A stretch of 64,000 nucleotides of DNA. Origin: an uncultured Acidimicrobiales bacterium (GTDB taxonomy: Bacteria > Actinomycetota > Acidimicrobiia > Acidimicrobiales > SZUA-35). The notes below the pieces were generated by a model. It saw nothing but the letters and a program-made list of their open reading frames with translations, was not told where the DNA came from and did not search any database. Position 1 is the stretch's first letter. The number at the start of each line of letters is the position of its first letter. The position numbers and the translations under genes were made by a program. Below are positions 4,257-60,431 of the stretch, in pieces. The stretch is from contig CAVOYW010000008.1 in the NCBI GenBank assembly GCA_963700755.1, positions 141,318 to 205,317 of the forward strand. Reading direction: 5' to 3'.

Positions 4257-5402
4257 GTGCATCTGGCCCTGCGGGAACTCCTTCGAGCGAAACTGCGCTT
4301 CGCCCTGTTGTCGTCGGCGATCGGCCTGCTCGTGTTCCTGATCCTCTTCCAGCAGGCGTTGTTCGGTGGACTCGTCACCAGCTTCATCGGCGCCATCGAC
4401 AACCAGAACGCTCCCATCCTCGCATTCGGCGACCAGGCCCGGACCAACGTCGAGGCCAGCCTGATCTTCCCCGGACAGCCCGAGCAGATCGCCCAGGTCG
4501 ACGGCGTCGGACGCACCGGACGGATCGGCGAGAACACGTTCACGGTCCAGGCCGGAGGCGAGCGCCGCGACGCCGCGATCTTCGGCTATGAACTGGGCGG
4601 TCTCGGTGAGCCGACCACCCTGATCGAGGGCCGTCTTCCGGAGGGGCCGTTCGAGGGGGTGGCGTCGGCGGCCGACGCCGGAGACGGCTTCGACATCGGC
4701 GACGTGATCGAGGTGGTGGGCACCGCGACCAGCGACCCCGACGAGCCCGACACGGCGATCACGATCGTCGGATTGGCCGAGAACCTGCAGTGGAGCGTTC
4801 AGGCCACCGTCTTCGTGTCGTTCGACACCTACGAGGCCTCCCGCCGGCACGTCCAACCCGACTCGACCGTGCTGCCGTCGCTGATCGCCGTCGCCCCGAC
4901 CGATGGCGTCGACCCGGCCGACCTCGCCGCCCGGATCACCGAGGCCGTTCCCGGCATCGAGGCCGTGACCCGTCAGCAGGCCGTCGACGGCAATCCTGGG
5001 GTCCAGGGCGTCAACAGTTCGTTCGCCATCATCCTGGCGCTGGCCTTCATGGTCGTCGTCCTGGTCGTGGGGTTCTTCTTCCTCATCCTCACCGTCCAGA
5101 AGTCCAAGCCCCTCACCCTGCTCCGGGCAATCGGCGCCCCGGCCTCCTACCTCGTCAAGAACCTCCTGGTCCAGATCGTGATCGTCATGGCGATCGGTGT
5201 CCTCATCGGACTCGGGCTCACCCTGGCCGTCGGCGCGGCGACGACCGGCGGTGCCATCGACGCGACGCTCGACCCCGCAACCGTGATCCGCACCGTGGCG
5301 CTGCTGTCGGTGCTCGCGCTCCTGGGTGGTCTCACGTCGGTGCGTCGGGTCCTTCGGATCGATCCCATCCGGGCCACGGTCGACTCCGGGAGCAGCCTGT
5401 AA
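4257..5402 (+). CDS. ABC transporter permease, FtsX/MacB-type
   Basis: The N-terminus VHLALRELLRAKLRF is followed by a large extracytoplasmic domain and a C-terminal FtsX-like 3-TM bundle. The GTG at 4257 was chosen by homology logic, and the ORF is open from 4077. Confidence 0.75.
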   Translation: MHLALRELLRAKLRFALLSSAIGLLVFLILFQQALFGGLVTSFIGAIDNQNAPILAFGDQARTNVEASLIFPGQPEQIAQVDGVGRTGRIGENTFTVQAGGERRDAAIFGYELGGLGEPTTLIEGRLPEGPFEGVASAADAGDGFDIGDVIEVVGTATSDPDEPDTAITIVGLAENLQWSVQATVFVSFDTYEASRRHVQPDSTVLPSLIAVAPTDGVDPADLAARITEAVPGIEAVTRQQAVDGNPGVQGVNSSFAIILALAFMVVVLVVGFFFLILTVQKSKPLTLLRAIGAPASYLVKNLLVQIVIVMAIGVLIGLGLTLAVGAATTGGAIDATLDPATVIRTVALLSVLALLGGLTSVRRVLRIDPIRATVDSGSSL

Positions 5403-6520
5403 TGCGCCTTGCCCTGATCGAACTGATCCGAAAGCCGGGCCGCTTCGCCGTCGCCGGAGGCGCCCTGACGCTCCTCACCCTGCTCTTGTTGTTCCTCGGA
5501 GCACTGCTCGACGGCCTGTACCTCGGTTCGACCGGAGCGCTTCGATCGCAGCCCGATGGGGCCGTGGTGTTCAGCGCCGACGCCCGGCAGTCGCTCCTGC
5601 GTTCGACCATGACGACCACCGATCGAGACACCATTGCCGGCATCGATGGTGTCGCCCGAGCCGGTGGCCTCGGTGTCACGCTCCTCGGCGTGAGGATTCC
5701 GGGTGAGGCCGAGATCGCAGACGGTGCAGTCCTCGGCTACGAACTCGAGTCCGACGCCGTCCCCGCCCCACCGCCCGAGGGCTTCGCCTGGGTCGACCAG
5801 GCACTCGAGGGCCTCGGGGCCGAGATCGGCGACATCTTGTCGATCGGACCCAACGAGTACCCCGTGACCATCGACGGCTGGGTCGACGACACCAACTTCC
5901 TCGGACAGAATGGAATCTGGGTGGCACCGGCGACCTGGCGAGCCGTCCAGAATGCCAATCGTCCCGATGCCCAGCTCGGCGACGACGAGTTCCAGGCCAT
6001 CATCGCCGAGTCGGCCGACGGGGTCAGTCCATCGGCCCTGGCTTCGAGCATCGATGCTGCACTGGCTGTCGATGGTGAGAATCGAACCGAATCGCTCACC
6101 CGCGACGAGTCGGTCGAGGGACTTCCCGGGGTCCGGGAACAGAACAGCACCTTCAACGCGATCATCGGCACCACCTTCTTCGTCGTCGGACTCGTCGTCG
6201 CCCTGTTCTTTGCTCTCCTCACGCTCGAACGGATCGGCCTCTACTCGGTGCTCAAGGCCTTCGGCACTCCGAGCCGGACGCTCGTCCTCGGCGTCGCCGT
6301 CCAGGCCATGGCCGTCGCCGTCATCTCGTTCCTCATCGGGGCCACACTCACCTGGGTCCTCGCCCTCGGTATTCCGGCAACCGTTCCCGTGCAGTTCACC
6401 CTCTCGCGTGCCGCCTTCACCTTCATCGGCATCACCATCACCGCCGTCATCGGCGGGCTGATCTCGTTGCGCCGCATCATCACCGTCGACCCCGCTGCCG
6501 CCATCGGCGCGGGACTCTGA
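5402..6520 (+). CDS. ABC transporter permease, FtsX/MacB-type (second subunit)
   Basis: MRLALIELIRKPGRF begins a protein with the same architecture as the previous gene. Its start overlaps the previous stop (TAATG). Confidence 0.75.
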   Translation: MRLALIELIRKPGRFAVAGGALTLLTLLLLFLGALLDGLYLGSTGALRSQPDGAVVFSADARQSLLRSTMTTTDRDTIAGIDGVARAGGLGVTLLGVRIPGEAEIADGAVLGYELESDAVPAPPPEGFAWVDQALEGLGAEIGDILSIGPNEYPVTIDGWVDDTNFLGQNGIWVAPATWRAVQNANRPDAQLGDDEFQAIIAESADGVSPSALASSIDAALAVDGENRTESLTRDESVEGLPGVREQNSTFNAIIGTTFFVVGLVVALFFALLTLERIGLYSVLKAFGTPSRTLVLGVAVQAMAVAVISFLIGATLTWVLALGIPATVPVQFTLSRAAFTFIGITITAVIGGLISLRRIITVDPAAAIGAGL

Positions 6521-6532
6521 TCAGGAGCCCCC

Positions 6533-7204
6533 ATGCCCGCCCTCGAGCTCAACGACGTCCGCAAGGTCTATCAGTCGGGTGACAGTCAGGTCGTTGCCCT
6601 CGATCACGCCACGCTCCGTGTCGCCGACGACGAGATCGTCGCCTTGGTCGGGCCGTCGGGCTCGGGCAAGACGACGTTGCTGTCGATCGCCGGTGGGCTG
6701 CTGACCCCGTCGGAGGGCTCGGTCACCGTCACCGGGGAGCAGATCGAGGACTACTCCGACAAACAGCTCACGAAGTTCCGCGGCGAGCGCATCGGCTTCG
6801 TCTTCCAGGCGGTCAACCTGGTCCCGTTCCTCAATGCCCGCGAGAACCTGACCGTCGTCGCCGAGATGCGGGGCAAGGGCGGTGCGGCGGCGCGGGCTCG
6901 GGCCGAGACCCTGCTCGACGAGCTCGGCCTCAAACACCGGATGAAGAACCTGCCCGAGCAACTCTCGGGTGGCGAGCGTCAGCGGGTTGCCATCGGCCGG
7001 GCCCTGATGAACGAACCCCGCCTGGTGTTGTTCGACGAGCCGACGTCGGCGCTCGATTCGAAGCTCGGTGTGCAAGTGATGGAGCTGATCCGCTCCGAGG
7101 TCAAGGGGCGGAACATCGCCGCCATCATCGTCACCCACGACACCCGGATGACCGACTACGCGGATCGCACGGTCGAGATCAGCGACGGCCGCCTGGTGGC
7201 CTGA
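6533..7204 (+). CDS. ABC transporter ATP-binding protein (MacB/LolD-like)
   Basis: The protein has Walker A GPSGSGKTT, the signature LSGGERQR and Walker B LVLFDEPT. Confidence 0.92.
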   Translation: MPALELNDVRKVYQSGDSQVVALDHATLRVADDEIVALVGPSGSGKTTLLSIAGGLLTPSEGSVTVTGEQIEDYSDKQLTKFRGERIGFVFQAVNLVPFLNARENLTVVAEMRGKGGAAARARAETLLDELGLKHRMKNLPEQLSGGERQRVAIGRALMNEPRLVLFDEPTSALDSKLGVQVMELIRSEVKGRNIAAIIVTHDTRMTDYADRTVEISDGRLVA

Positions 7205-54954: not shown

Positions 54955-55743
54955 ATGTTGATCCGGGCCTGGCGGCGCAAGGATGCCGAGACGGAAGGCA
55001 TGGGTGACACGACCGGATGCGGGGCTGCATCGCCGACCCCGAACGCTCGGCGCCTGCTGGTCCTGACGGGGGCCGAGGTGTCGGTCGACTCGGGGATCCC
55101 GACCTTTCGTGCACCCGGAGCCCGACGAGGTGATGCCGGTGAATCGGATGCGGGCAGCCCCGGCGCTCCGGTCTTCCTCCGTGACCTCGTCGACCGACCG
55201 GGCGAGGTCTTTGCGCTCGTGCGAGCGATCACCGAGGCGTCACTCGAGGCAAGTCCCAACCCCGGGCACTTCGCCATCGCCGCCTGTCAGCGCCGACTGC
55301 GGGACCGGGGTGGTGACCTGACGCTCCTGACGACGAACATCGACGACCTCCACGAACGGGCCGGCGCCGAGACGCTTCACCTGTACGGCCGGAGCTGGAT
55401 GGACTCCTGCCTCGGGTGCGACCACGTCGCTCACTCCGGTCATCGCCCCGGTATCTGTGCCAACTGCGGCGGAACATTGCGCCCCGACGTCGTCCTCGTC
55501 GGCGAACCGACCCACGCCGAGGCGAGCTGGCACGGGCACCGTGCGCTCGAGGACGCCGACGCCGTGTACGTCGTCGGCACATCCGGGAGTACCGGATTCG
55601 CCCGGAGTTGGGTGCGCAAGGCGCGACAGGTGGGTGCAACGACCGTGCTCGTCGCCGAGGACCCCGAGCCCGACTACGCCGCCGAATTCGACGTGGTGGT
55701 CCGCGACCGGGCCACCAACCTCGCCGACTACCTGCCCGTCTGA
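54955..55743 (+). CDS. Sir2-family NAD-dependent protein deacylase
   Basis: The protein has GAEVSVDSGIPTFR, TNIDDLHERAG and the Zn motif CLGC...CANCGG. The start is uncertain (54955 or 55000). Confidence 0.8.
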   Translation: MLIRAWRRKDAETEGMGDTTGCGAASPTPNARRLLVLTGAEVSVDSGIPTFRAPGARRGDAGESDAGSPGAPVFLRDLVDRPGEVFALVRAITEASLEASPNPGHFAIAACQRRLRDRGGDLTLLTTNIDDLHERAGAETLHLYGRSWMDSCLGCDHVAHSGHRPGICANCGGTLRPDVVLVGEPTHAEASWHGHRALEDADAVYVVGTSGSTGFARSWVRKARQVGATTVLVAEDPEPDYAAEFDVVVRDRATNLADYLPV

Positions 55744-55777
55744 GGTCGGGCGAGGACCGCCACCGGGCACGGCGCCG

Positions 55778-56782
55778 TCAGCGGACGGGTAGCACCGAGG
55801 CGGCGATCTCGAGCCGGCCCACCTCGACGCCGTCCTGGTTCCTCCGTGTCCGATCGTCCCACTCCGCCAGATCCTGTCGTTCCGGCCCGGTCAGGTGCCC
55901 GTTGGCGGACAGGACGTCGATGATGAGGGCAGGTAGCGGGCGATCGCTTCCGTCATCGATCTTCAGGGCATAGCCGACTCCCTCGCCGACCACGCCGACG
56001 ACGAGGACACCCTCGGCGCCGCCTTTCACGAAGAGTCGGCCGTCGGTCGCGCTGATCAGGTCGGTGTCGAACCGTTGCCGGCTGCCGCCGATCAGCTCCG
56101 GATGGACCCGTGCCGCGCGGGTCATGCGTTCCGCGGCCAGAGCCGTCGCCGGGGCCAGGCGGCTCGGATTTGCGATCCGGGCGATGCCGGTGGCCAGACC
56201 ATGCAGCCGCATCCGGAACGTCGGAGCGCTGCAGCCGTCGATCGCCGTCGTGAACGAGTCCTCGTCGCCGGCCCCGACGAGGGTGGTCGTCGCCTCGAAG
56301 ACCGCTTGCTGAACGGCCCCATCAGGGCGCAGATAGTCCGCCGGATCGGTCCCCAGGAAGCGGGCGAGCGCGAGGAATCCGACGTGTTTCCCCGAGCAGT
56401 TCATGGCGGCCCGCCGCTCCGCCTCGGTCGACCAGGGCGCCAGTGGTCGCTGAGGCCCGCACTGAAGGTCGTCTTCGCCCAGCCCCAATCGTTCGAGCGT
56501 TGCCAGCACCCGTTCGACGTGGATCGACTCTCCGCTGTGCGAGGCAATGGCGAGCGCCACATCGCCATCGTCGAACCCGGCGGCGTCGGCTGCGCCACTG
56601 ACCAGGAGCGGCAGCGCCTGGAAGGACTTGGTGGCACTTCTCGGGAACACGAACTGGTCGGGGTCACCGGCTGCGTCCAACACGGTCCCATCGGTGTCGA
56701 CCACGACCCAGGTTCCACGGTGCAGGGACTCGACGGCAGGTCCCCGCCACAGACGGCAGACGACGGGGTTGGTCTCGATCAT
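55778..56782 (-). CDS. asparaginase II family protein
   Basis: The sequence contains PRSATKSFQALP...HSGE...NCSGKH as remembered for PF06089. The ATG is at 56782. Confidence 0.7.
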   Translation of the reverse strand: MIETNPVVCRLWRGPAVESLHRGTWVVVDTDGTVLDAAGDPDQFVFPRSATKSFQALPLLVSGAADAAGFDDGDVALAIASHSGESIHVERVLATLERLGLGEDDLQCGPQRPLAPWSTEAERRAAMNCSGKHVGFLALARFLGTDPADYLRPDGAVQQAVFEATTTLVGAGDEDSFTTAIDGCSAPTFRMRLHGLATGIARIANPSRLAPATALAAERMTRAARVHPELIGGSRQRFDTDLISATDGRLFVKGGAEGVLVVGVVGEGVGYALKIDDGSDRPLPALIIDVLSANGHLTGPERQDLAEWDDRTRRNQDGVEVGRLEIAASVLPVR

Positions 56783-56859
56783 CCCGGCGGATGGTACTGG
56801 ATCACCCGGTTCGTCACGGCTCGCTCGTCCACCCCGCCGTTTCGTCTTCCCGGGGGTGA

Positions 56860-56920
56860 TTCTCCCCATTCAGACCGAGGTCGGCTCCGTCGATCACTCG
56901 AGCATCATCGGATCACGAAC
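56860..56920 (+). promoter_or_regulatory. conserved leader element, copy 1 (core TTCTCCCCATTCAGACC)
   Basis: A 17-nt core is identical to 57226-57242. The CCGTCGAT and CATC blocks lie at the same offsets (27 and 43 nt) in both copies. Confidence 0.55.
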
Positions 56921-56932
56921 AAGGACCCAATC

Positions 56933-57049
56933 ATGAGCACCACCGCCAAAGCCCGCCTCTACGCCACCTCCGCCGTCGTCGGCATCGGCACCATGATCAC
57001 CGTCATGGGCGCCCCCTGGAAGTTCAACTTCGTGGCTTCCTGGTTCTGA
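56933..57049 (+). CDS. small hydrophobic peptide, 38 aa (MSTTAKARLYATSAVVGIGTMITVMGAPWKFNFVASWF)
   Basis: AAGGA lies 7 nt upstream of the start. The peptide is a paralog of the 32-aa sORF at 57407, with synonymous and conservative differences only. It has a single predicted TM helix. Confidence 0.65.
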   Translation: MSTTAKARLYATSAVVGIGTMITVMGAPWKFNFVASWF

Positions 57050-57072
57050 TCCAACCCGGCGACACACTTCTT

Positions 57073-57099
57073 GGGGAATCGAGCTCCGGCTCGGTTCCC
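57073..57099 (+). terminator. hairpin after sORF1 (GGGGAATCGAGC-tccg-GCTCGGTTCCC)
   Basis: The stem is about 11 bp including one G-T pair. The stem sequence is nearly the same as that of the hairpin after sORF2. Confidence 0.5.
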
Positions 57100-57225
57100 T
57101 TCGTCACGTCCGGGGTCGCGGCAATGCTGCCTCGTCCGATGCTCGTGGGCACCGTCCCGGCTGTCGTCGCATCGAACGGAGTCGGCCTCGTCACCCGAGC
57201 AGAGCGGACCACGGCCGCAGGGCAG

Positions 57226-57284
57226 TTCTCCCCATTCAGACCTCCCCCCGGGCCGTCGATGACCAGAACATCGAAGCAACGAGC
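57226..57284 (+). promoter_or_regulatory. conserved leader element, copy 2
   Basis: See copy 1. Relative to overlapping ORFs it is read in a different frame than copy 1, so the conservation is at nucleotide level. Confidence 0.55.
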
Positions 57285-57406
57285 CCGCCGGGCCCCAACC
57301 TCCGACGAAAAGACCATCAAAGGAACCGGGATGATCACCAACCCCACGAGCACCGAGTGCAACGATGCCCCCATCGTTCGCAAGTGGTGAGAAGAGAAGG
57401 AACGAC

Positions 57407-57505
57407 ATGAGCACAACCACCAAAGCACGGATCTACGCCACCACAGCGATCGTCGGCATCAGCGGTCTGATCACCGTGATGGGCGCCCCCTGGAAGTTCA
57501 ACTGA
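57407..57505 (+). CDS. small hydrophobic peptide, 32 aa (MSTTTKARIYATTAIVGISGLITVMGAPWKFN)
   Basis: GAAGGAA lies 5-6 nt upstream of the start. The peptide is a paralog of sORF1, and the stop TGA is at 57503-57505. Confidence 0.65.
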   Translation: MSTTTKARIYATTAIVGISGLITVMGAPWKFN

Positions 57506-57533
57506 ATCCATCTACCCACCGACCGCGACCCTC

Positions 57534-57562
57534 GGGGGAATCGAGCCTGGCTCGATTCCCCC
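57534..57562 (+). terminator. hairpin after sORF2 (perfect 13-bp stem GGGGGAATCGAGC / GCTCGATTCCCCC, 3-nt loop)
   Basis: I read this directly. There is no U-tract, which is common in high-GC actinobacteria. Confidence 0.55.
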
Positions 57563-57639
57563 GAATCGCGTCCGGCCTCAAGGCGCGTCGGCGACGGCCG
57601 ATAGTGGAAGGAACCTCCCTGCGTAGGACCAGCCGCTCC

Positions 57640-59679
57640 ATGCCCCGATCGATCTCCAAACGCCTACGCCCGCACCGACTGACCCTGCTGATCTGGCTCT
57701 CGGTGCTGGCCGCGGCCTGTCTCTGGCTCGGTACCTACGCCGAGCTCGACGGGGCACCGCTGCTCGGTGATCACCCCGAGATGTTCGTGGTGTTCTCGCT
57801 GTTGCTGATCGCGACCGAGCTCAAGCCGATGCCGTCGCTGACCGACGACACCGAGCTGACCGCCTCGTGGGCGTTCGCCTTCACCCTGCTCTTCACCGCA
57901 CCGGCCGCCGGCGCGCTCATGGCGGTGGGGCTGGCCCCCATCATCGGCGACCTCAAGCGACGGAAACGGCTCGACCGGACGCTCTTCAACGCCGCCCAGT
58001 TCATGCTCAGCCTCGAGTTCGGCGGCCTCGTCGGATCGCTCGTGGAGGACCTGTCGATCGTGGCCGACGGCCAACCGGTCTCGCTCCGCTGGCTGGCCGC
58101 CGTCGGTCTGGCCTGTGCCGCCGGCTTCGCCGCCAACAGCGTGTTCATCAGCGTGGCCATCGCGTTCCACATGGGCCTCCCGGTGAAGGAGATGCTGCAT
58201 CGATCGCTCGGCATCAATCTCAGCATGGACGGGCTCTTGCTCGCGCTGGCGCCCATTTTCGTGGTGATCGGGCTGGAAGCGTTGATCCTCGTCCCACTCA
58301 TGTTGCTCACCGTTTGGATCATCTTCCGCAGCGCCGCCCTGGCGCTGCGGAACAAGCACGACGCGACGCACGATCAGCTCACGGGTATCGCCAATCGCCG
58401 TCTCTTCGAGGATCATGCCGCGATGATCATCGAGCAATCGAAGACCACCGGCCTCCCGTTCGCCCTGGTGCACATCGATCTCGACGGCTTCAAGGGCATC
58501 AACGACAGACTGGGACATCACTATGGCGACCTGGTGCTCGTCGAGGTCGCATCCCGGCTGAAGTCCGGCGAACGCTCCACCGATCAGTCGGCCCGACTCG
58601 GAGGCGACGAGTTCGCCCTGTTGATCGCCGACATCACCGACCCGGCCGAGGCCGAGAGCGTGGCTCAGCGCCTGCTCGATCTGATCTCGGCTCCCCTCGA
58701 CATCGACGGGGTCCCGCTGACCGTGGGCGCCAGCATGGGCGTCGCCCTCTTCCCCGAGCACGGCGAGGACGTCAACCAACTCCTGCATCACGCCGACATC
58801 GCGATGTACGAGGCGAAGGCCTGCGGCGGTGGTGTCCGGGTGTTCGAAGGGATCGAGGAATCGCCCGGTCCTCCTCGCTTCGGATTGCTGACCGACCTGA
58901 CCAGGGCCATCGAATCCGGCGAACTCAGTTTGGCCTACCAACCCAAGGTCGATCTCGACACCGGGCAGATCTCGACCGTCGAAGCCCTGCTCCGTTGGAA
59001 CCACCCCACCCACGGCCCCGTGCGGCCCGGATGGTTCATGCCCCAGGTCGAACAAACCGATCTCATCAACGCACTGACCGATCACGTGATCGACATGGCG
59101 CTGTCCCAGTGCCGCCGCTGGGCCGGGGAAGGCATCTCGGTCTCGATCGCGGTCAACGTCTCGGCCCGGAATCTGCACGATCTGCGTTTTCCGGATCGGG
59201 TCGCTCAGAAACTCGCCGAACAGGGTCTCGACCCGTCGGTCCTCGAGATCGAGCTCACCGAGAACGCCGTCATGGAGGACCCGATCCGATCGGCGGCCGT
59301 CCTTGCCCGATTGCGTGCCGTCGGCGTCACCCTGGCCATCGACGACTTCGGCACCGGCTACTCGTCGCTGTCGGTCCTGCGTGACCTCGACGTGGATCGC
59401 ATCAAGATCGACCGCTCGTTCGTGACCAACCTGGCAGTCGACGAGGGTGACCTCACGATCGTCCGGTCCGTGATCGAACTCGGTCACAACCTCGGGCTTC
59501 GGGCCGTGGCCGAAGGCGTGGAAACCGTCGAGGCCATGACCGTCCTCCAGGCGATCGGCTGCGACGAGATCCAGGGCTTTCTGCTCGCGATCCCGGTGCC
59601 CGCCGCCGAGCTCACCCCCCTCCTGCGTCTCGGTCGGGTCGATCTGGCCGAGCTGGCCCGAACGAAGGTTCTCCCGTGA
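57640..59679 (+). CDS. membrane-sensor diguanylate cyclase/phosphodiesterase (multi-TM N-domain + GGDEF + EAL)
   Basis: The protein has RLGGDEFALL (GGDEF), and LEIELTEN, DDFGTGYSSL and EGVE (EAL). There are about 8 TM helices N-terminally. The start is the ATG at 57640 or the GTG at 57604. Confidence 0.9.
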   Translation: MPRSISKRLRPHRLTLLIWLSVLAAACLWLGTYAELDGAPLLGDHPEMFVVFSLLLIATELKPMPSLTDDTELTASWAFAFTLLFTAPAAGALMAVGLAPIIGDLKRRKRLDRTLFNAAQFMLSLEFGGLVGSLVEDLSIVADGQPVSLRWLAAVGLACAAGFAANSVFISVAIAFHMGLPVKEMLHRSLGINLSMDGLLLALAPIFVVIGLEALILVPLMLLTVWIIFRSAALALRNKHDATHDQLTGIANRRLFEDHAAMIIEQSKTTGLPFALVHIDLDGFKGINDRLGHHYGDLVLVEVASRLKSGERSTDQSARLGGDEFALLIADITDPAEAESVAQRLLDLISAPLDIDGVPLTVGASMGVALFPEHGEDVNQLLHHADIAMYEAKACGGGVRVFEGIEESPGPPRFGLLTDLTRAIESGELSLAYQPKVDLDTGQISTVEALLRWNHPTHGPVRPGWFMPQVEQTDLINALTDHVIDMALSQCRRWAGEGISVSIAVNVSARNLHDLRFPDRVAQKLAEQGLDPSVLEIELTENAVMEDPIRSAAVLARLRAVGVTLAIDDFGTGYSSLSVLRDLDVDRIKIDRSFVTNLAVDEGDLTIVRSVIELGHNLGLRAVAEGVETVEAMTVLQAIGCDEIQGFLLAIPVPAAELTPLLRLGRVDLAELARTKVLP

Positions 59680-60431
59680 TCACTGCCGTCGTGTTCCTGA
59701 TCCTCGTGCTCACGGTGCCGCTGCTCGGGGGGAGTCTCACCCGGCTCGGTGAGGTTCGACTCACGTCGTGGTGGACGATCGTCGCGTCGCTGGTGATCCA
59801 GGTCGTCCTGATCGAGGTCCTGTCGGACTCCTTCGGCGGCAAGACCGCTGCCACCCTCCACCTGTCGAGCTACGGACTGGCGTTCATGTTCGTCTGGTAC
59901 AACCGTCGGCTCGTCGGTATGGGAGTGATGGTGCTCGGAGGCGTGATGAACGCGGCAGCGATCGCCGCGAACGGTGGCGTGATGCCTGCTCGCCTCGAAG
60001 CGCTGGAAACGGCCGGAATCATCAGCGACTCTCCGACCTTCGAGAACTCGGCCCCGGTCGAGAACGCTCGACTCGCCTTCCTCGGCGACGTGTTCGCCAT
60101 CCCCGAAGGCGTGCCCTTCGCCAACGTGTTCAGCATCGGCGACATCCTGCTCGTCCTGGGCGGCGGCGTCACGGTCCACATCATCGGCCGTTCGAAGCTC
60201 GGACGATTGCTCCAACCCCGTTCGGGCGCCGACCTCGGCGACGGTGATCCCCAGGGCGAGGACGTCCGGTCGGCCGAGCCCGACCTGGTCGACATCGAAC
60301 AGACACTCTCGTCGTTGTCGGCCGGCCGACCCCGGTCCGAAGGCGCCGAGGAACGACTGGAACGGGTGCGGGCACTCCGGCAGGAATGGACCGAGACCGC
60401 CGGTCGATCGGAGCTCAGCTCCAGAGGGTGA
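59676..60431 (+). CDS. DUF5317-like integral membrane protein
   Basis: A GTGA overlap with the upstream stop indicates an operon. The sequence contains AAIAANGGVMP...FANVFSIGDILLVLG as remembered for DUF5317. Confidence 0.55.
   Translation: MITAVVFLILVLTVPLLGGSLTRLGEVRLTSWWTIVASLVIQVVLIEVLSDSFGGKTAATLHLSSYGLAFMFVWYNRRLVGMGVMVLGGVMNAAAIAANGGVMPARLEALETAGIISDSPTFENSAPVENARLAFLGDVFAIPEGVPFANVFSIGDILLVLGGGVTVHIIGRSKLGRLLQPRSGADLGDGDPQGEDVRSAEPDLVDIEQTLSSLSAGRPRSEGAEERLERVRALRQEWTETAGRSELSSRG

Follow-up and report, generated by a model that had tools for sequence, protein, structure and literature searches.

Paired micropeptide genes beside a transmembrane GGDEF-EAL/DUF5317 module in Acidimicrobiales: candidate small membrane modulators with a conserved upstream micro-ORF

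Small membrane proteins are established regulators of membrane sensors, and a 2025 review of them covers kinases, transporters and respiratory complexes as targets and gives no example from cyclic di-GMP (c-di-GMP) signalling (PMC12648545). The pairing of such a protein with a membrane sensor is a known kind of arrangement. In the stretch of DNA analysed here, 64,000 nucleotides from an uncultured Acidimicrobiales bacterium (contig CAVOYW010000008.1, positions 141,318 to 205,317; hereafter the window), two short open reading frames (ORFs), which an initial annotation had picked out as a duplicated pair of hydrophobic peptide genes, lie just upstream of genes for a multi-transmembrane (TM) GGDEF-EAL enzyme and a DUF5317 membrane protein. 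Like MgrB and SafA, which act on PhoQ, the encoded peptides have at most 50 aa, one TM helix and short tails, are genetically tied to a membrane signalling protein, and would presumably act on the membrane or periplasmic part of that sensor. However, they have no sequence relationship to MgrB or SafA, their partner is a c-di-GMP enzyme with DUF5317 instead of a histidine kinase, and peptide binding is putative here.

Accessory proteins are also known for membrane GGDEF(-EAL) enzymes, as in the case of YfiR and YfiB with YfiN, and of NspS with MbaA. In these systems, and in HmsC/HmsE with HmsD (HmsCDE is named in PMC10294631), the accessory is encoded beside the enzyme and sets its activity, a layout that our locus resembles. 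Accessories of the YfiR, HmsC and NspS type are full-size periplasmic or outer-membrane proteins, whereas our candidate, an intramembrane peptide of 32 aa, has a promoter-like motif, a predicted terminator and an upstream micro-ORF of its own. The peptide family, its partner class (a c-di-GMP enzyme with DUF5317) and the micro-ORF with its hairpin are undescribed in the databases and literature searched. From sequence and gene order, on which all functional statements below are based, we give roughly even chances to the reading in which the peptide serves the TM-GGDEF-EAL/DUF5317 module as a small membrane subunit or modulator and is made from its own tightly controlled unit.

Comparison with relatives indicates that both ORFs are real genes and paralogous members of an unnamed micropeptide family. 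They were found where the initial annotation had placed them, each preceded at 5–7 nt by the purine-rich Shine–Dalgarno (SD)-like sequence it described (AAGGA 7 nt before the first ATG, GAAGGA 5 nt before the second). Our recount of the shared codons gave the same figures of 20 identical, 5 synonymous (ACC/ACA, GCC/GCA, CGC/CGG, GCC/GCG and GTC/GTG) and 7 replaced codons (A>T, L>I, S>T, V>I, G>S, T>G and M>L), and the final 8 are identical in both copies. Family members have 31–50 aa and one predicted membrane helix each, with a basic N-terminus, a Thr/Ser/Gly-rich helix and an M-G-A-P-x-K-[W/F] end, within the core [GS]-G-L-I-x-[AV]-M-G-A-P-x-K-[WF]. Among 62 unique sequences, G-A-P and K are invariant (62/62), the preceding M is present in 61/62, and G-L-I hardly varies. 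Between P and K stands V, W, L, H or F, and after K stands W or F. A hidden Markov model (HMM) search of 1.84 billion representative proteins yielded five further peptide clusters, of 31–33 aa, and a profile search returned 58 clusters; the family comprises about 60. It is so far known solely from Acidimicrobiales-type genomes or metagenome-assembled genomes (MAGs) and from metagenomes. Scans of public DNA with peptide patterns found three loci in genomes and four in metagenomes, a small yield from a rare family and narrow patterns, and a protein search with a padded query matched only the peptide itself.

The exact proteins of both ORFs are present in public gene calls without a name, and other public copies are unnamed or labelled 'hypothetical protein'. 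In line with the earlier suggestion that the peptides fall outside known families, we found no family match in Pfam, NCBIfam, PADLOC or PHROGs (E ≤ 1–10), the best match among Protein Data Bank (PDB) sequences was spurious (E = 0.32), and the family motif strings were absent from the literature searched.

The translated and selected nature of the peptides, proposed from the two copies alone, was borne out by their relatives. The compared loci, numbered L001 onwards, are all uncultured MAGs or metagenomic contigs, and the closest (L001, identical with L002) is another Acidimicrobiales MAG (CAVQVO010000009.1) that carries the same tandem pair. Its peptide 2 is identical in protein sequence, with three synonymous differences, and its peptide 1, at 92% identity, retains the tail of 6 aa (FVAAWF). 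We looked for frame-breaking indels or stops in 19 orthologous or paralogous coding sequences (CDS) from the fetched loci and found none; variable sites numbered 22/14/26 at the three codon positions. Pairwise ratios of non-synonymous to synonymous substitution rates (dN/dS) were mostly 0.0–0.5, many of them 0.0–0.25, with the most distant pairs saturated and uninformative. L003 and L011, for instance, differ by 8 synonymous and 0 non-synonymous changes, and L004 and L011 by 10 and 1. Purifying selection spans the whole 26-residue core.

A link to the adjacent c-di-GMP enzyme, one of two hypotheses put forward in the initial annotation, is strongly supported by gene order. In 12 independent lineages (the window, L001, L003, L004, L005, L006/7, L009, L010, L011, L012, L017 and L018–L021), the next gene downstream encodes an orthologue of the same multi-TM GGDEF-EAL protein, and this adjacency, which had been proposed as a check, holds wherever DNA downstream of a core-family peptide was available. 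The sensor domains of these orthologues are 41–93% identical to that of the window, and DUF5317 comes next after GGDEF-EAL in each locus that reaches far enough (the window, L001, L003, L004, L011, L012, L017, L018, L019 and L021). The outer flanks vary: asparaginase II and a major facilitator superfamily (MFS) protein in the window and L001, alanyl-tRNA synthetase in L010 and L018–21, an amidase in L017, and a CAP-domain protein in L005. L015 and L016 carry more distant TM-GGDEF paralogues without EAL or DUF5317, and there no peptide was found in any frame; the peptide therefore tracks the GGDEF-EAL plus DUF5317 form specifically. Two variant subfamilies, both with longer C-terminal tails, have other neighbours. 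One follows a gene for HD-GYP, another class of c-di-GMP enzyme, and the other lies beside a PAS protein. Across the family the neighbour of the peptide gene is always a signalling protein, usually a c-di-GMP enzyme.

Table 1. Coordinates of the features discussed (window positions unless a locus number is given)
Feature	Location	Strand	Details
Promoter-like bipartite motif, copy 1	56864..56896	+	CCCCATTCAG - N15 - GTCGATCA
Peptide gene 1	56933..57049	+	38 aa, MSTTAKARLYATSAVVGIGTMITVMGAPWKFNFVASWF
Terminator-like hairpin 1	57073..57100	+	12 bp, loop TCCG, no U tract; z = -4.05
Decayed remnant of GPGG-motif small membrane protein gene	57101..57198	+	Aligns to an intact ORF of L001
Promoter-like bipartite motif, copy 2	57230..57262	+	CCCCATTCAG - N15 - GTCGATGA; conserved in L001
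Micro-ORF	57331..57390	+	19 aa, MITNPTSTECNDAPIVRKW-stop; own SD AAAGGAA
RNA hairpin over last codons and stop of micro-ORF	57351..57389	+	Per-sequence folds
Peptide gene 2	57407..57505	+	32 aa, MSTTTKARIYATTAIVGISGLITVMGAPWKFN; ancestral position, directly upstream of GGDEF-EAL gene
Terminator-like hairpin 2	57532..57564	+	16-bp perfect palindromic stem, 1-nt gap; outer stem to ~57519-57575; z = -6.64
Promoter-like motif of GGDEF-EAL gene	57578..57604	+	TCAA - N15 - GCCGATAG
Multi-TM sensor + GGDEF + EAL protein	57640..59679	+	Pfam GGDEF E = 1.4e-44, EAL E = 4.2e-66
DUF5317 membrane protein	59676..60431	+	PF17248 E = 2e-28; start overlaps upstream stop (GTGA)
Sensor-domain paralogues	L015 5001-6107, L016 1565-2800		43-46% identical, fused to GGDEF only, then unrelated genes
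Variant peptide subfamily	L022 7001-7153		Directly after membrane-anchored HD-GYP gene (5213-6832); 44-60 aa as annotated
Variant peptide subfamily	L013 (3561-3689), L014, L023-25		39-42 aa, hydrophobic tail; divergent from soluble PAS protein, convergent permease downstream

Regarding the duplication itself, a repeat finder recovered the CDS pair (98 nt, 85%), the leader core pair (56860–56906 and 57226–57272; 47 nt, 74%) and the hairpin arm GGGGAATCGAGC, which is common to both copies. The three elements named in the initial annotation are thus each repeated, although the units are not collinear: the spacings are 366 nt for the leader cores, 474 nt for the CDS and 462 nt for the hairpin arms, because copy 2 has ~100 extra nt between leader core and CDS that hold the micro-ORF. 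Leader core and hairpin arm have no further occurrence in the window. Copy 1 is a lineage-specific duplicate: its promoter-like motif, CDS and hairpin are all retained, whereas the micro-ORF has gone and the 6-residue tail has been added.

The leader core, in turn, is likely to be a promoter. That it is conserved stood up, as it is repeated in the window and related motifs occur at matching positions in relatives (L003, L004, L008, L011, L012, L013, L014 and L017–L023), with the consensus CCCAT(Y)MAG - ~15 nt - G(C/T)CGAT(S)A, or GCCGTAGT in L003, L004, L011 and L012. The proposal of a structured or antisense-targeted leader was not supported: taken whole, the leaders fold no better than shuffled sequences (z = +0.2 and -0.3), and the spacing is promoter-like. 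A known RNA family or riboswitch was rejected, since a scan of 55500–58500 against Rfam returned only sub-threshold chance matches and neither leader folded better than shuffles. The element behaves like a promoter in being bipartite, with a variable spacer and a shifting distance to the ATG: 66–80 nt where no micro-ORF is present, and 138–175 nt where a micro-ORF lies between.

The promoter class is a suggestive lead only. The sigma-28 (FliA/SigD/WhiG) consensus is TAAA-N15-GCCGATAA, and the downstream half of the peptide-gene motif resembles its -10 element GCCGATAA, although the upstream half (CCCAT) differs. Before the enzyme gene, TCAA-N15-GCCGATAG fits that consensus at 10/12 positions and is the sole site in the window with two mismatches or fewer (E. 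coli FliA promoters are listed in PMC4203485), but such a site also arose in 31/100 shuffles and is not significant alone. It is kept at the same place, with variable spacers, as TCA(A/C)-N15-GCCGATAG in L001 (6828–6854), L003 (6145–6171), L004 (3486–3512), L011 (4148–4174) and L012 (4187–4213), which makes six loci with the window. Related promoter-like motifs hence precede both the peptide gene and the enzyme gene; the clade of L017 and L018–21 has none between the hairpin and the enzyme gene.

The initial annotation overlooked the promoter-like motif before the enzyme gene, the decayed GPGG-family gene and, between leader core 2 and peptide 2, a micro-ORF ending in VRKW-stop together with its RNA hairpin. 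Such micro-ORFs, of 16–21 codons and ending 8–19 nt before the peptide ATG, are present in window copy 2, L001 (6578–6637), L005, L006/7, L008, L010, L011, L012 and L017–L021. In L022 the VRKW micro-ORF stop overlaps the peptide start (GTGA), and L009 carries VVKW instead, in a frame that continues to an ATGA overlap. The element is missing from copy 1, from L003/4 and from the PAS-linked type. The N-terminal parts are unrelated between loci, whereas VRKW-stop is kept in 15 loci with synonymous codon changes only (GTT/GTC, CGC/CGG/AGG and AAG/AAA) and with TGA, TAG and TAA as stops. As these codons vary only synonymously and all three stops are used, a constraint on the peptide is indicated. 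The pattern occurs once in the window, where 0.02 occurrences are expected.

The same nucleotides form the 3' arm of a predicted hairpin. In its inner stem the Val-Arg codons pair with variable upstream codons, and in the outer stem UGGUG (the Trp codon and two stop nucleotides) pairs with CACC(G/A). All 11 tested loci fold alike (z from -1.2 to -5.5), double compensatory changes are found at six or more stem positions, synonymous third positions included, and the stem abuts or overlaps the peptide SD. These folds were computed sequence by sequence, with the codon-aligned 3' arm as the index; since the 5' arms are not alignable, RNAalifold gave no structure from a MAFFT alignment of the region. 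The VRKW element is constrained twice, in its peptide and in its RNA, and may be a new leader-peptide element.

Regulation through short upstream ORFs (uORFs) has been described elsewhere. In Salmonella a translation-aborting small ORF promotes translation of an Mg2+ transporter (PMC8092293), and coupling or occlusion through an upstream ribosome-binding site has been reported in Sinorhizobium (PMC13285730). As in these cases, the regulated start lies only a few nt beyond the end of a short ORF that has an SD of its own, and this short ORF ends inside an RNA structure that its translation should remodel. Our element differs in that the VRKW residues are conserved besides the stem, while the Salmonella and Sinorhizobium examples, as outlined in those sources, need no such residues, and in that the regulated gene itself encodes a micropeptide. 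VRKW conservation suggests a role for the nascent peptide, perhaps in termination pausing. In this respect the element resembles leaders of the TnaC and SpeFL type, which are short, carry conserved residues at the termination site and lie upstream of the regulated gene; stalling is putative here.

Many public gene calls of the family (e.g. P0049–P0064; P0017 of L012 and P0055 of L022) begin with 'MV...'. In L012 and L022 this start is the ATG inside AA-ATG-GTG-A, where the micro-ORF ends in Lys-Trp-stop. These calls probably begin at the wrong codon; they overlap the micro-ORF and would hide it.

Downstream of the peptide genes, the matching GC hairpins reported earlier both fold far better than shuffles. 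In L001, hairpin 1 shows a compensatory pair (CGAGC/GCTCG to CGGGC/GCCCG) and a G-U pair changed to G-C, pointing to a role in the + strand RNA. A strong stem-loop 17–30 nt after the peptide stop occurs in all GGDEF-linked loci that extend far enough; its sequence differs by lineage, and a U tract follows it in L006, L012, L017 and L018–21 but not in the window copies. These hairpins are best read as terminators or leaky terminators that would give an abundant short peptide mRNA. In L017 and L018–21 the U-tract hairpin lies within ~10–20 nt of the GGDEF-EAL start, and these enzyme genes probably need read-through, because the hairpin abuts the start and there is no separate promoter-like motif. 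Classical attenuation at the downstream hairpin is unlikely, as the hairpin lies well past the stop and no antiterminator pairing was seen.

As for the enzyme, its GTGA coupling to DUF5317 was found as reported, and Pfam matches both proteins. Its start is likely the ATG at 57640 and not the GTG at 57604, since the former is called in the close relative and the latter lies inside the conserved promoter-like motif. The translation contains intact RxxD-N5-GGDEF, EAL and DDFGTGYSS motifs, and with GGDEF, RxxD and EAL intact the enzyme is plausibly bifunctional and therefore switchable, as predicted from these motifs. Its N-terminal 250 aa match no Pfam family. An AlphaFold2 (AF2) model of this sensor domain (57640–58395) from a 5-sequence alignment, with a mean predicted local distance difference test (pLDDT) score of 68 and a predicted TM-score (pTM) of 0.66, gave as best PDB fold matches the S components RibU, CbiM, BioY and FolT of energy-coupling factor (ECF) transporters (TM-score ~0.6 on target, E = 0.2–1.5). 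This is a weak hint at a small-ligand-binding membrane fold, and the domain has no large extracytoplasmic part. Among its invariant polar positions are E72, T74, S76, W77, N117, Q120, N166 and D197 (alignment numbering).

CbiM works with a small membrane partner, CbiN, which offers a further, similarly weak parallel; CbiN, however, has two TM helices and ~100 aa, and no transporter ATPase or T component is linked here. DUF5317 orthologues share the intramembrane polar motifs NGGVMPA, FLGDVFAIP and FS(I/V)GD and a conserved His, which suggest a catalytic or an ion- or ligand-binding role. With the GD motifs in mind we considered an A24-type aspartyl peptidase, and found no weak Pfam matches to any peptidase or other family. 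No solved relative and no literature on DUF5317 were found, and its single-sequence AF2 model was unusable (pLDDT 49). Homology between DUF5317 and the sensor domain was rejected (hhalign probability 0.1%).

Taken as a small membrane subunit or modulator, the peptide would work as follows. The bipartite motif would drive each peptide gene as a promoter, and the hairpin would end the transcript as a terminator or leaky terminator. Translation of the peptide would be coupled to, or gated by, translation or termination of the micro-ORF: the stem would be unfolded only once the micro-ORF is translated, with the nascent VRKW perhaps delaying termination. The peptide would then insert in the membrane as an accessory or regulatory subunit of the module made up of the polytopic sensor domain of the bifunctional GGDEF-EAL enzyme and its translationally coupled DUF5317 partner, and would bias c-di-GMP synthesis against breakdown, in the manner in which MgrB and SafA act on PhoQ. 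The peptides show two features of small membrane regulators, namely a length of 50 aa or less with a single TM helix and strict linkage to a sensor gene.

Several points weigh against this reading. Among the 62 sequences, C-terminal conservation is continuous over ~12 residues and does not follow one helix face, a pattern explained no worse by a linear motif for recognition or processing than by helix packing. The motif is also kept beside a soluble PAS/methyl-accepting chemotaxis protein (MCP)-like protein (L013, L014 and L023–25), so direct TM contact with the neighbour is not universal. In addition, where a promoter-like motif lies between the hairpin and the enzyme gene, the peptide is a separate transcription unit; adjacency alone carries the functional argument. 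Finally, tight translational control and tandem duplication are also seen in toxic peptides.

The linear motif is the starting point for the rival that survives best, although we regard it as unlikely: the peptide would be the signal-peptide-like precursor of an exported signal, whose C-terminal AP-x-K-[W/F] (with any tail) is released and sensed by the sensor domain of the GGDEF-EAL protein, DUF5317 perhaps serving in processing or export. The logic would be akin to Phr, SHP or AgrD pheromone cassettes with c-di-GMP as output. Signal peptidase favours small residues at -3 and -1, and the invariant block, linear and at the helix end, fits this rule (A/V and G in A/V-M-G|A-P). The free residue of the motif (V/W/L/H/F) and the variable tails resemble specificity positions, and many peptide-precursor operons share the layout seen here: a small gene that has a promoter-like motif of its own and a strong or leaky terminator, followed by genes for membrane proteins. 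Also consistent with it are the neighbour, always a signalling protein, the sensor without a large extracytoplasmic domain and weakly like small-ligand-binding S components, the DUF5317 intramembrane motifs (NGGVMPA, LGDVFAIP and SIGD), and the persistence of the peptide motif beside a cytoplasmic PAS neighbour.

Like Phr, SHP/ComS and AgrD, our genes are ORFs of precursor size (30–45 aa) next to a sensor, and their products begin with basic residues, continue with a hydrophobic stretch and end in an oligopeptide that is conserved or variable. However, pheromone precursors usually diverge fast, whereas the h-region and the motif are highly conserved here; only 5–6 residues follow the putative cleavage site, without a pro-region; and the cytoplasmic location of the PAS neighbour also counts against an exported ligand. 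We recognised no linked protease, exporter or importer, and identified no homologue of an RRNPP regulator, the Opp importer, AgrB or Eep; DUF5317 has neither peptidase similarity nor a solved relative, and the c-di-GMP output and the Actinomycetota hosts set our case apart. A joint version is less probable still: a complete peptide-to-c-di-GMP circuit, in which released AP-x-K-[W/F] would be sensed by an S-component-like polytopic domain and thereby switch the bifunctional GGDEF-EAL enzyme, DUF5317 would process or export the peptide, and the VRKW micro-ORF would gate its synthesis through a cue-dependent pause in termination. Such a circuit would be of a kind not described before.

Equally improbable, in our judgement, is a type I toxin-like membrane peptide, the other hypothesis of the initial annotation, whose translation would be held low by the micro-ORF and hairpin and perhaps an antisense RNA, the adjacency to c-di-GMP genes being historical or stress-related. 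Translation of mok gates that of hok, and the apparent coupling of our peptide to a hairpin-embedded upstream ORF recalls this pair, as do the small hydrophobic peptide with a single helix, the tandem copies and the strong terminators; moreover, the palindromic hairpin could terminate transcripts from either strand. The differences are substantial, however. Here the micro-ORF precedes the peptide gene instead of overlapping it, and it ends in a conserved peptide motif. One particular signalling enzyme keeps its place next to the peptide across deep divergence while the outer flanks change, unlike at type I toxin loci, and the patchy, mobile distribution without a constant neighbour that would mark such loci is not seen in the 12 lineages. 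Purifying selection acts on the whole peptide across ~60 clusters, and no homologues were found on plasmids or phages, nor any match to defence or phage libraries. The helix is marginally hydrophobic (mean Kyte–Doolittle ~1.7, calculated by hand from the consensus) as well as Thr/Ser/Gly-rich, and a simple scan revealed no sigma-70-like promoter on the opposite strand, a weak negative. As for a structured 5' untranslated region, the leaders as a whole fold no better than shuffles, yet a conserved hairpin lies beside the SD in copy 2 and its orthologues. The structured or antisense-targeted form of this hypothesis found no support, given the folding scores of the leaders, the promoter-like motif, the constant neighbour and the lack of plasmid or phage homologues.

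Slightly less probable again is a purely cis-acting leader, in which the peptide would be functionless and the peptide ORF and micro-ORF would only control read-through of the hairpin into GGDEF-EAL/DUF5317. The arrangement in L017 and L018–21, with a U-tract hairpin near the enzyme start and no separate promoter-like motif, would fit such a role, and the conserved C-terminal motif near the stop could be a ribosome-arrest sequence. Against this, selection on the 26-residue core extends beyond a few regulatory codons, and 6–14 extra C-terminal residues in some members mean that the motif need not sit at the stop. The distance of the hairpin from the stop places it outside the footprint of a terminating ribosome, again without antiterminator pairing; copy 1, L013/14 and L022–25 are not followed by the enzyme gene; and the six loci above have a conserved promoter-like motif between hairpin and enzyme gene. 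A precursor of a ribosomally synthesized and post-translationally modified peptide (RiPP) was rejected, as no maturase is conserved in any neighbourhood, and so, by reasoning, was a MifM-like force-sensing arrest peptide, which is too short for its helix to exit the ribosome before termination. What probability remains belongs to something else.

Some further observations concern the surroundings of the peptide genes. Between the two cassettes of L001 lies an intact 47-aa ORF (6287–6430), the counterpart of the decayed remnant in the window, which scores 78 bits against the GPGG-motif family NF040511 (cut-off 33). The remnant matches its 3' two-thirds, with an N-terminal deletion of ~150 nt, a 12-nt deletion and loss of the stop (TGA to CGA). 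Peptides 1 and 2 do not match NF040511 and are not members of it. The L022 region contains integrase and transposase genes, and in the PAS-linked loci (L013, L014 and L023–25) the C-terminal part of the PAS protein resembles, by eye, a chemoreceptor signalling domain, to which it is a candidate relative.

In practical terms, our results point to probably false 'MV...' peptide starts in several public gene calls and allow their correction. The VRKW micro-ORF with its hairpin represents a compact and well-conserved element of apparent translational control that is directly testable, and the co-inheritance described here provides the first functional lead for DUF5317 and for the unnamed sensor domain. 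Finally, c-di-GMP enzymes with polytopic membrane domains are very common, and only for a minority of them is the input signal known; a strictly co-inherited peptide of 32 residues would be a new kind of input or modulator for them.

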